A DNA stretch of 6,764 nt from IMG/VR virus record IMGVR_UViG_2660238215_000004; one strand, given 5' to 3'. The DNA is from a virus. Taxonomy: Duplodnaviria; Heunggongvirae; Uroviricota; Caudoviricetes. Of the stretch, positions 1-3,000 are shown piece after piece. How positions within the stretch are numbered: position 1 is the first letter of the stretch; every line of letters begins with the position of its first letter. Made by a program: the position numbers.

Positions 1-3000
1 TAATGATCTGGCAGCCTGAGTTCACAGATAAAATACTCTCCAGGAAACCCGGGGCGGTTCAAACTGCGCCGATTTTGGTTTCAAATACGCCGCCGTCCAG
101 CTCCCCAATAAATGCCTGCACATCAGTACTGCGTTCGCTAGCCATTTTGCTGCTCCTCATCATATCGACCCTGCAAGGTCGGTTGGTTTCTCCACAAAAC
201 GGAGAAGAACACCTGCGGTGGCTGCCGCCCGGATGGATTGGGTTATGAGCCCGTCGTCCGGTGATGCTCTTCTCTGTTTTGTAAAAAGAGCGGTACCAGC
301 CGGAAGCAAGGGTACAAACTGGTACCGCCAAAGCAGTGGCTGTTGTGGTGGGGTTGTCACTCAGGCGTATGGTCAACCTGACAATCCGGTGTCCTCAACG
401 GGGAAAGAGTAACCCCGCCATACTTACCGCCGCGCCATTTCGCGGATTACCACAACGCTGAGAGCACTTAGCCAGTTACGGCACCACACTTTGTCGCGGC
501 TCCATAAATGCCCTCATCGTTGCACCCTGGTCTCTTCCCAGGCGTCAAACCGAATCGCCACGCTGGTTAGGCGTCTTATCAGCATCATCATTGACTTGCA
601 CATTCCGGCTACCTGGTTTGTTTGCCCGAGCAAGGAGTGGATTGTCCCCTTTAACGTCCCCAGACCGCTAACGACGCATGTGCCATACGCCGTGTTACAA
701 CCAAATTTTGTTAGTACCTTGTTTGTTTGTCTGGAAAGAAAGATAAAATGAAGTTGCGCATTATGCAAGTGTTTTTGTTGCGAGATATGCAATTTAAAGG
801 GTAATGAAAAGCCACCTTTGGGTGGCTAATTGATGAGGAGGTAAGGGTTAATTGTGTCGCTTAAGGGTTTGTGACTGGCTGATTAAGACCTTTCCAAAGA
901 CCATAAACCGGTGTTCATTTTCGCTGGTAATTCCCCATTCACGGTAAATCTGGTTATCAGAAATCACCAGTAGTTTGTCAGGTATCATTTGCAGTCGTTT
1001 GACATAAATTTTATCATCAAAACCAAATACATAGATACCATCTCCATCAAACTGATTGATACTGACATCAACGAAGATGAGATCTCCTGGCTCAATGGTT
1101 GGACACATACTGTCCCCACGAACGTTGATAACTTTAATGTGATTGGCTGGCCGTCCGCCAAACATCGATACAGCATTATCAGTTCTGTATTCAATGGCAT
1201 GAATCACATCAATGACATCACCGCCCTGGATAAGGCCATTTCCCGCACTGGCACTGACATCCAGCATTTCAATACGGAATACATCCTTCACCTGCGCAAC
1301 ATCCTCACTAATACTGTTTTTACATACAGTATTACTTTTGAAGTCTGAGGTAAAGAGATCAGCAATATCAACACCTAAGCTCCTGGCAATATTACTCAGG
1401 GCTTGTTCAGTGAATTGTTTCTGCTTACCTGTTTCCAGGCGTGAGATATTCGCCGCATCCACTCCTATTGCTTCAGCGAGATCGGCGATTTTCATGTTCT
1501 TCGCCTGGCGAAGTTGTCTGACTCGGTTTCCTATGTTCATGCGTTTATTACATTTCTTTATTGCGCGTTAAGCAAATCAACTTGCGCAAAATATTTGCGT
1601 GAAATAATATGCTCATCACGCAATATGTGGAGGTCATATGCAATCACCATTACGGAATGTGCGTAAGGCGCACGGATTTACTTTGCAGCATGTTGCTGCT
1701 GGCGTTCAGGTCAATCCAGCGACGCTGAGTCGTATTGAAAGACTGGAACAAATTCCATCTATCGATCTTGCAGAACGTCTGGCCAATTTTTTTAAGGGTG
1801 AAATCAGCGAAATGCAGATTCTTTATCCGGCACGTTTTCAATCTAGCCAAAACCAGAATGGGTTTAAACCACAGGAACAGGAGGTAAGCCGTGGGTAATC
1901 ATCACTGGAAAGTGGAAAAACAGCCTGAGTGGTACGTGAAAGCTGTCAGAAAAACTATCGCGGCGTTGCCGGGGGGGTACGCTGAAGCTGCTGAGTGGCT
2001 GGATGTAACAGAGAACGCATTATTTAACCGCCTTCGTGCCGATGGCGATCAGATTTTCCCGCTGGGATGGGCAATGATTTTACAACGTGCTGGTGGCACT
2101 CACTTCATTGCTGACGCTGTGGCGCAGTCTGCAAATGGCGTCTTTGTGTCTCTTCCTGACGTCGAGGATGTGGACAATGCCGATATTAACCAGCGTTTAC
2201 TGGAAGTCATTGAACAGATCGGCAGTTATTCAAAACAGATTCGTTCGGCAATCGAAGACGGTGTAGTGGAACCGCATGAGAAGACAGCAATTAACGACGA
2301 GCTGTACCTCTCAATTTCGAAGCTGCAGGAGCATGCAGCACTTGTCTACAAAATTTTTTGCGTTTCAGAAAGTAATGACGCCCGCGAGTGTGCAGCTCCG
2401 GGCGTCGTGGCGTTTTGTGTCCGTGGAGAAACTAACGCATGAACAGTTTAACAACACACTACCGTCGCTCGCAACTGATTGCGCTTCCTGTACCGGGTGG
2501 AAAAGCGAAGGTGGAGTATTGCTATGCAGTAAATGTACCAGGTGACAGGGAAATTGTAACCCACAGCTTTGCTGAGTGGGCTGTGGGGGATTTCAACCGG
2601 CAGAAGGAGACAGTCCTTTGCGACAAGTTAACCGCTGGTTCAAAGATCACTACGGAGTGCCCGTCAGAGTCATTCGTTGGGAGCCGGAAACACAACGGGT
2701 TATCTACCTCCGTGAAGGCTATGAGCATGAGTGCTTCAGCCCGCTCGAACAGTTTCGTCGTAAATTCAGGGAAATAGAGGTCGGTCATGAGCACTAAATT
2801 AACCGGCTATGTATGGGATGGTTGCGCTGCGTCAGGCATGAAATTATCCAGCGTGGCAATTATGGCCCGCCTGGCTGATTTCAGTAATGACGAAGGTGTG
2901 TGCTGGCCATCAATTGAAACTATTGCCCGTCAGATTGGCGCGGGGATGAGTACCGTCAGAACGGCTATCGCACGGCTGGAAGCAGAAGGCTGGTTAACGC

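Follow-up and report, generated by a model that had tools for sequence, protein, structure and literature searches.

In lambdoid phages, a small gene may lie out of frame inside a longer one and be translated from its own start, as is the case with Rz1 inside the lambda Rz gene, and there both frames encode functional, constrained proteins. Overlapping frames may also be connected by the ribosome itself, as occurs at the programmed -1 frameshift sites of dnaX and of the phage tail chaperone genes G/GT. The locus studied here has in addition a close relative with a known phenotype: ymfM (b1148) of the E. coli prophage e14 has been identified as SfiC, the SOS-inducible inhibitor of cell division, and expression of the K-12 ymfM ORF from pBAD24 blocks Z-ring formation and leads to filamentation (Ansari et al., bioRxiv 10.1101/2020.11.19.390815). 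In that study ymfM is regarded as one gene, and a DUF4222 frame nested in it is not taken into account (bioRxiv 10.1101/2020.11.19.390815).

We consider it very probable that the two overlapping frames described here belong to separate genes of the early rightward operon, ymfM and a nested DUF4222 gene, each translated independently, and that no frameshift, mutational or programmed, is involved. Both genes are already present in public annotation, and as a sequence feature the arrangement is ordinary. The window, by which we mean the whole 6,764-nt stretch of viral DNA that was analysed, represents the immunity/replication region of a lambdoid E. coli prophage resembling e14 and SfII: its DNA is a 100% match to that of E. 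coli 2013C-4974, and it is matched at 96-98% by about 2000 complete E. coli genomes, including the e14 of K-12, and by phages SfII and SfIV. Four genes of this region are relevant here:

1891-2442, plus strand: ymfL, CII-like (Phage_CP76) regulator gene (PF06892, NCBIfam and PGAP)
2439-2777, plus strand: ymfM reading frame, 112 aa, homologue of K-12 b1148 (ORF list, clusters and position after ymfL)
2618-2797, plus strand: DUF4222 gene, 59 aa, TTG start and TAA stop (Pfam PF13973, PGAP and selection)
2787-3728, plus strand: O-like replication initiator gene, HTH_36 (Pfam HTH_36, E 4.3e-11)

The first of these, ymfL, was recognised both by Pfam (PF06892, E 8.6e-14) and by the NCBIfam equivalog phage_reg_YmfL (168.9 bits), and is annotated by PGAP in the identical strain 2013C-4974. 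Its TGA stop (2440-2442) overlaps the ATG of ymfM (2439-2441) in an ATGA junction, and this junction, as ATGA or GTGA, is conserved in the relatives. At the other end, the ATG of the initiator gene, whose homologues are called replication protein O or primosomal protein in the phage records, lies 10 nt past the ymfM stop and 8 nt ahead of the DUF4222 stop, and the sequence of this junction, CATGAGCACTAA, is kept in Klebsiella phages. The Rfam search returned nothing relevant, its one sub-threshold miRNA match lying over a tandem repeat, and the promoter and terminator scan of positions 2250-2900 gave no signal exceeding those of shuffled sequences.

The 112-aa frame occupies the same position after ymfL as b1148, annotated in NC_000913.3 as 'cell division inhibitor YmfM', and just 7 nt differ from K-12 across 2439-2797. 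Its product shows 96% protein identity to the main 112-aa clusters and matches phrog_1170 over its full length. The frame consists of two very different parts:

2439-2615, plus strand: conserved N-terminal module of ymfM, about 58-59 codons (substitutions, homologues and AlphaFold)
2619-2777, plus strand: read-through tail of ymfM, 52 codons and the TAG stop, overlying DUF4222 in another frame

Within frame 0, only the N-terminal module shows protein-like behaviour. All 4 of its substitutions relative to K-12 fall in frame-0 third positions, dN/dS against the Klebsiella phages is 0.37-0.44, third positions account for 14 of the 22 sites that vary among 51 alleles, and all four Gly codons are found across alleles at 2586-2588. 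In related phages the module forms an ORF of 59-78 aa by itself. These stand-alone versions lack the tail and retain 38-65% identity in other genera; in Hafnia yong2, Providencia PSTRCR_117lys and Citrobacter phiNP they are 59-65 aa long, with coupling to the CII-like gene. AlphaFold models the module with moderate confidence (pLDDT 60-78).

The tail, by contrast with the module, is read-through and is unconstrained as protein. Against Klebsiella its frame-0 'dN/dS' is 4-7, with substitutions distributed 1/25/4 over frame-0 codon positions 1/2/3, and among 82 e14-type loci we found 28 variants of the frame-0 protein whose variation lies nearly all in the tail. Residues 68-112 are modelled with pLDDT below 40, and the tail is probably disordered.

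The nested gene shows the opposite behaviour over the same nucleotides. Of its 180 nt, 160 lie inside the ymfM frame at an offset of -1, and it runs 20 nt past the ymfM stop; its translation start is preceded by a putative ribosome-binding site:

2604-2609, plus strand: AAGGAG Shine-Dalgarno of the DUF4222 gene, 8 nt before TTG 2618

The product matches PF13973 with 68.7 bits (E 3.2e-19; the Pfam gathering cut-off for this family is 27 bits) over model positions 1-52 of 53, and, except that the TTG start is read as Met, it is identical to WP_001250269.1, which PGAP places at exactly 2618-2797 in 2013C-4974 and likewise annotates in K-12. Compared with the Klebsiella phages, DUF4222 is under strong purifying selection, with a dN/dS of about 0.03 and substitutions of 6/3/25 by codon position (25 of 34 in the third). 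The 82 loci do not bear on this point: they come from a scan of viral contigs whose matches all carried a 100% identical DUF4222 protein, so its invariance among them is no evidence of constraint. The start column holds ATG in the Klebsiella, Pantoea and mEp390 relatives and GTG in others, and motifs of the GGAG/GGAGG type precede it in the Klebsiella relatives and in three others (L223, L224 and L226). We identified 139 homologous clusters of 43-102 aa, PF13973 being the sole domain match in all but one, and nearly all the homologues are stand-alone proteins of 50-86 aa. In most of the related phages examined, DUF4222 lies directly upstream of the replication initiator and overlaps its start, while its downstream neighbour in the ST64B-type and Hafnia phages is an Ash/Rha-type gene instead. 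AlphaFold gives a confident beta-barrel model (pLDDT 83.5), and the fold is predicted to be a small SH3/Tudor/KOW-like beta-barrel; fold searches with this model returned the generic small beta-barrel class only and no function, and our literature search found no paper on the function of DUF4222.

These results bear out, at the coordinates given, each of the sequence features that the original prediction had read from the DNA. Frame 0 is open over 2439-2777 from a coupled start and gives 112 aa; its last ~45 codons, described as non-protein-like, are those with the inverted substitution pattern and the lowest model confidence; the -1 frame is open from 2576 to 2797; and the stretch from about 2625, which had seemed to resemble real protein, is covered far beyond chance by the whole DUF4222 model. 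The separate 59-aa gene that had been proposed at TTG 2618 behind AAGGAG is a complete DUF4222 coding sequence, supported by the PGAP annotation, by the start column and by purifying selection.

We propose that the locus would work as follows. Translation of ymfM would start at ATG 2439, coupled to that of ymfL through the ATGA junction, and its conserved product would be the module of ~58 residues that in related phages stands alone after the CII-like gene. Since nothing lies here between the two modules, and since frame 0 has no stop until the TAG at 2775-2777, ymfM reads into DUF4222; its ribosomes would thus read 52 further codons over DUF4222 in the wrong frame, adding the tail, and would terminate 10 nt before the initiator ATG. 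DUF4222 would be started at TTG 2618 from its own AAGGAG ribosome-binding site. Both products would actually be made, and the end of ymfM translation at the start of the initiator gene may help to couple the expression of the operon. Several considerations weigh against this scheme: TTG is a weak start, which frame-0 ribosomes could occlude; none of the annotations compared supports both genes; the model of the N-terminal module is of moderate confidence; and stops in the ymfM frame may be rarer than passive read-through would leave them, in which case either the tail or the unbroken frame itself is perhaps not entirely neutral.

This last consideration leads to the most probable of the alternatives, namely that selection keeps the ymfM frame open across DUF4222, either because the tail matters or because ymfM ribosomes must terminate at the initiator start, coupling the CII-like gene to ymfM and on to the initiator and avoiding polarity. 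When the codon usage of the flanking genes is taken as the null, the first 50 DUF4222 codons carry a strong deficit of frame-0-type stops in two groups (0.12 observed against 2.35 expected in the E. coli group; 0.21 against 2.14 in the Yersinia group), with the other frame and the control ORFs at expectation. We do not rely on this test, however, because DUF4222 has its own preference for NNY codons, which it favours even at harmless sites; under the more conservative null, in which synonymous codons are shuffled inside the gene, the probability of an open frame 0 is 0.31 for the type found in the window. The frame is open in all six of the lineages examined in which a YmfM-type module abuts DUF4222, and also in the mEp390 lineage despite its different upstream module; the six within-gene permutation probabilities multiply to about 8e-4, a product that overstates significance because the lineages are related. 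Val, Leu and Ile codons able to give rise to a stop occur less often ahead of codons starting with A than ahead of those starting with C or T, although the signal is weak (Fisher p 0.03-0.07), and in 7 of 7 lineages examined the frame-0 stop lies no more than about 12 nt from the start of the downstream replication gene. The Citrobacter phiNP copy, into which no upstream ORF feeds, has 4-6 such stops, but in the Yersinia group the frame is mostly open although the upstream ORF ends where DUF4222 begins and there is no read-through. The polymorphisms within E. coli are too few to inform, with 0 changes that create a stop where about 1.4 were expected, and the sequence of the tail itself varies freely. 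The overlap does not show the purifying selection on both frames by which dual coding is recognised, the dN/dS values of the two frames standing at opposite extremes. The evidence suggests, short of proof, that stops in the ymfM frame are somewhat scarce across DUF4222, and we regard selection for an open frame as possible but doubtful. Such selection would refine the reading as two independently translated genes and not replace it.

The overlap has a consequence for the SfiC phenotype, now 35 years old: both the clone and the deletion by which it was assigned to YmfM extend over nearly all of DUF4222 as well. According to the text of the paper, pBAD-ymfM carries 'the open reading frame'; if this is the annotated ORF, the clone also includes the DUF4222 Shine-Dalgarno, the TTG and 53 of the 59 codons. 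Deletion of the ymfM ORF likewise takes out most of DUF4222. Because both constructs span most of the nested gene, the published experiments have never separated the YmfM and DUF4222 products, and our literature search found no ribosome-profiling or proteomic report on ymfM. It is a tentative idea, and on balance an unlikely one, that the SfiC block comes wholly or partly from DUF4222 or needs both products, and/or that the ymfM frame is selectively kept open for a ribosome relay from the CII-like gene to the initiator.

The same constructs touch on a further alternative, implicit in the PGAP annotation, in which DUF4222 alone is real and ymfM is an accidental ORF without a functional protein. 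PGAP places no CDS over 2439-2617, the 112-aa product matches no Pfam or NCBIfam family, the structural model of the N-terminal module reaches just moderate confidence, and the published clone holds most of DUF4222 too. We nevertheless find this improbable: frame-0 substitutions in the module are biased towards synonymous ones, up to the four Gly codons at one site, the module recurs in other genera as a stand-alone gene coupled to the CII-like gene, and the ATGA (or GTGA) junction is conserved. The annotations themselves are divided, the curated K-12 record having ymfM only and PGAP DUF4222 only, while the 112-aa ORF alone, or even a shadow ORF on the minus strand, is what several phage records show; none of the annotations compared has both genes. 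Because they keep one of two overlapping genes, comparative work on the module is inconsistent.

The remaining alternatives connect the two frames in a single product, and the original prediction had named as a possible site one short feature, which is present as described:

2585-2589, plus strand: GGGGG run, the earlier candidate indel or slippage site (unconserved)

In the window the -1 frame is preceded by a TGA at 2573-2575 and is open from 2576, so that the G run falls within an interval (2576-2617) in which programmed -1 frameshifting could yield a fusion of the N-terminal module to DUF4222 alongside YmfM; rare database proteins do carry the exact fused sequence, an example being P0065 (119 aa). 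We judge this very improbable. The run is G5 in only 20 of the 82 e14-type loci, the others having GGGTG (54, and 5 more with a different flank), GGGCG (2) or GGGAG (1); elsewhere it is GGGTG in K-12, GGGG in Klebsiella and GGGCG in Pantoea. The T at 2588 of the commonest allele creates a -1-frame TGA at 2588-2590, and a -1-frame stop past the run is also found in 2 of 3 Klebsiella phages (L004 and L006). Reading the frame-0 codons of 2574-2620 by eye, we found no X XXY YYZ heptamer, in agreement with the original prediction. A programmed frameshift is recognised by a downstream frame that lacks initiation signals of its own; here that frame has a conserved start column and SD-like motifs, and DUF4222 occurs alone in many phages. 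Finally, the fused variants show four different junctions.

As regards the start of the -1 frame, GTG 2576, which would give 73 aa, was also considered as a candidate and was ruled out because most alleles stop at 2588-2590 in that frame.

That a frameshift mutation or a homopolymer sequencing error split an ancestral gene of ~119 aa is scarcely credible: altering the G run by one base would bring the frames together and public assemblies do contain a few fused proteins, but at least 2004 complete E. coli genomes have the identical two-frame arrangement, as do relatives in other genera at DNA identities of 75% and below (Klebsiella, Pantoea, mEp390 and three lineages of greater divergence), the modules are found apart in other phages, and the fused forms amount to 5 tiny clusters of 1-14 members against more than 1700 members in the five largest two-frame clusters. 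Of the three readings originally offered, the nested gene is therefore retained, while the gene frameshifted by a single-base indel and the programmed frameshift are discarded; the fused ~119-aa protein that was to be sought in relatives occurs as rare variants only, with heterogeneous junctions, and what the relatives show is a pair of separate, conserved ORFs overlapping in the same way, the outcome that had been set beforehand as the mark of a nested gene.

The reading as two independently translated genes can be placed beside the known systems as follows: (i) The ymfM of K-12 e14 has the same place after ymfL, the same ATGA junction and the same 112-aa frame, and the two prophages differ in the initiator gene, which is intact here and a chimeric remnant in K-12. 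(ii) As in dnaX and G/GT, two frames overlap at a -1 offset in a phage operon; unlike those sites, this one has no slippery heptamer and no conserved homopolymer, and its downstream frame is equipped with a start codon and a ribosome-binding site of its own. (iii) Rz/Rz1 is similar in that a small gene with its own start is nested out of frame in a longer one. However, both frames of Rz/Rz1 are constrained, whereas in the overlap described here constraint acts on the DUF4222 frame alone and the ymfM tail is free, and, unlike in Rz/Rz1, the small gene extends beyond the stop of the longer one.

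The ORF map and family scans place the interval 2439-2797 among the immunity and early rightward genes of a lambdoid prophage, organized as follows:

848-1540, minus strand: LexA/CI-like repressor
1638-1898, plus strand: Cro-like gene
1891-2442, plus strand: CII-like gene ymfL
2439-2797, plus strand: interval in question (ymfM / DUF4222)
2787-3728, plus strand: O-like initiator with an HTH_36 domain
3725-4219, plus strand: PerC-family gene
3' of the PerC-family gene: candidate Dam-type methylase and RusA ORFs, named by resemblance

Over the 471 bases around the finding, identity is 100% with E. 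coli 2013C-4974, 96-98% with a site in 2004 of the 5426 complete genomes of E. coli (K-12 prophage e14 included), ~98% in Shigella phages SfII and SfIV and ~75% in a group of Klebsiella phages. The observation that two frames overlap here is confirmed, and both the sequence and the ORF map contain every feature that had been listed: an ATGA junction (2439-2442), frame 0 running on to 2777, an open -1 frame at 2576-2797, GGGGG at 2585-2589 and TTG 2618 preceded by AAGGAG (2604-2609).

Judged from its sequence, the -1 frame holds an entire gene that is already known, and of the readings offered by the original prediction that of a nested small gene starting at TTG 2618 is the correct one: (i) the translation matches the whole Pfam DUF4222 model (E 3.2e-19), the match beginning at the TTG. 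(ii) The NCBI pipeline draws a CDS at exactly 2618-2797, encoding the 59-aa DUF4222 protein WP_001250269.1, both in the 100%-identical strain 2013C-4974 and in K-12. (iii) The start-codon column holds ATG in the Klebsiella, Pantoea and mEp390 relatives and GTG in those of the ST64B/mEp460 type and in two lineages that are more diverged, and SD-like motifs precede the start in relatives. (iv) Against the Klebsiella phages, substitutions fall 6/3/25 at codon positions 1/2/3, with a dN/dS of ~0.03. A database search recovered 139 homologue clusters from Enterobacterales, 43-102 aa in length; PF13973 is matched by every cluster except one, and nearly all are stand-alone proteins of 50-86 aa. An unannotated homologue occupies a 178-nt 'gap' between the Rha and replication genes of Citrobacter phage phiNP (locus L010, about 2085-2260); its ymfM-type frame contains 4-6 stops, which sets it apart from nearly all other copies. 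In an Entomohabitans teleogrylli contig (L228, 1201-1437), a 78-aa ymfM N-module and the initiator gene are kept and DUF4222 is cut to its last ~15 codons, and therefore DUF4222 may be dispensable or this prophage may be decaying.

With regard to frame 0, only the first half of ymfM behaves as protein. The homologous 339-nt ORF is b1148, 'cell division inhibitor YmfM', in the curated K-12 record. Across 2439-2617, all four differences from K-12 fall at frame-0 third positions, and dN/dS against Klebsiella is 0.37-0.44. Among 51 alleles from 82 e14-type loci, third positions make up 14 of the 22 variable sites of this N-module (the first ~58 codons), and all four Gly codons (GGG, GGT, GGC and GGA) are found at 2586-2588. 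Three other phages have the N-module as an ORF by itself, next in line behind the CII-like gene: it is 59 aa long in Hafnia phage yong2, 63 aa in Providencia phage PSTRCR_117lys, where the initiator comes immediately next, and 65 aa in Citrobacter phage phiNP, where a Rha gene comes next. The tail is DUF4222 sequence read in the wrong frame, a shadow of that gene. Substitutions against the Klebsiella phages in 2619-2774 fall 1/25/4 at frame-0 positions (nominal dN/dS 4-7); the 82 loci, a set picked by DUF4222 identity and thus informative for tail variability alone, encode 28 distinct frame-0 proteins, differing almost wholly in the tail, and one DUF4222 protein; and AlphaFold scores YmfM residues 68-112 below 40. 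This bears out the earlier impression that the tail does not look like protein.

The tail frame could be kept open by selection if ribosomes were carried through it from ymfM to the initiator start. Under a null based on the codon usage of the flanking genes, the ymfM-type frame across the first 50 DUF4222 codons holds far too few stops: 0.12 where 2.35 are expected (E. coli group) and 0.21 where 2.14 are expected (Yersinia group), with the third frame and long control ORFs at expectation. Each of the six lineages examined with a YmfM-type N-module directly against DUF4222 keeps the frame open (the permutation probabilities multiply to ~8e-4 when these lineages are taken as independent), and it is likewise open in mEp390, with a different upstream module, and it ends at most about 12 nt from the start of the next gene in 7/7 lineages examined. 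However, NNY codons are preferred throughout the DUF4222 gene, and when synonymous codons are permuted within it the probability of an open frame is 0.31 for the window's type, pooled stop deficits being modest (p 0.02-0.04); comparing risk sites with safe sites in lineage representatives gave p 0.03-0.07. Moreover, the frame is mostly open in Yersinia-type phages too, where the upstream ORF ends as DUF4222 begins and there is no read-through. With evidence on both sides, we rate this selective relay as possible, if rather doubtful.

Neither frameshift reading survives. N-module and DUF4222 are independent genes that abut in this lineage, and many phages have DUF4222 but no N-module (ST64B, SfV, Stx phages, Yersinia phages). 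Fused proteins of N-module and DUF4222 do exist, and one of them, P0065 (119 aa), is exactly what the original prediction expected if one base were changed in the G run. But fused proteins form only five small clusters (1-14 members) with differing junctions, against more than 1700 members in the five largest two-frame clusters, and look like sporadic indels or assembly errors. Against programmed slippage, no classical slippery heptamer was seen in frame-0 codons 2574-2620, only 20 of the 82 related loci have the G5 run, the commonest allele (GGGTG, also in K-12) puts a -1-frame TGA at 2588-2590, so that a slip on the run would end translation at once, and in two of the three Klebsiella phages the -1 frame meets a stop shortly 3' of the run.

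The feature is ordinary and already catalogued. In the annotations examined both genes are public, never together: NC_000913.3 carries ymfM without DUF4222, PGAP records DUF4222 without ymfM, and phage records either gene alone or a minus-strand shadow ORF. The window has a typical shadow ORF of this kind (2522-2794, minus strand, 90 aa), antisense to and in phase with the DUF4222 codons; in ON470608.1 and MK416017.1 its homologue is annotated as a hypothetical protein, replacing the plus-strand genes. In ST64B (sb41; L011, 1058-2215), mEp460 ('Rha'; L012, 1052-2203) and Hafnia yong2 ('Ash'; L007, 2005-2688), annotation begins the downstream CDS at an early ATG, so that it crosses, in the other frame, a DUF4222 gene absent from the record; these starts are probably too far upstream.

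The product responsible for the SfiC phenotype may be YmfM, the DUF4222 protein or both. Filamentation and loss of Z rings were obtained with pBAD24 carrying ymfM 'the open reading frame', and a ymfM deletion was also used (Ansari et al., bioRxiv 10.1101/2020.11.19.390815); both genes were present in earlier screening clones. The ymfM ORF includes the DUF4222 ribosome-binding site, the TTG and 53 of the 59 codons, and its deletion also takes most of DUF4222. Our literature search found no paper weighing this confound.

Two further elements of the locus recall phage lambda. A GC-rich hairpin (GACGCCCG...CGGGCGTC, 2377-2406), followed on the minus strand by a U-rich stretch, sits within the 3' end of ymfL. 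Here, around the ymfL/ymfM junction, K-12 e14 was reported to make ECS003, a ~70-nt RNA said to be antisense to the ribosome-binding site of ymfM (PMC3175480). Block 2380-2452 retains 97-99% identity in the sampled E. coli records (H23-H29) that carry a Rha-family gene downstream instead. Within the O-like initiator gene, 4.3 tandem copies of the 15-bp unit TCTGACCCGTCAAAA (3096-3159) encode a repeated SDPSKSDASK peptide and produced the sole, spurious, Rfam match; the repeat resembles origin iterons. The hairpin with its U-rich stretch, together with ECS003, is reminiscent of lambda OOP, and the candidate iterons lie inside the initiator gene as the lambda ori lies inside O.
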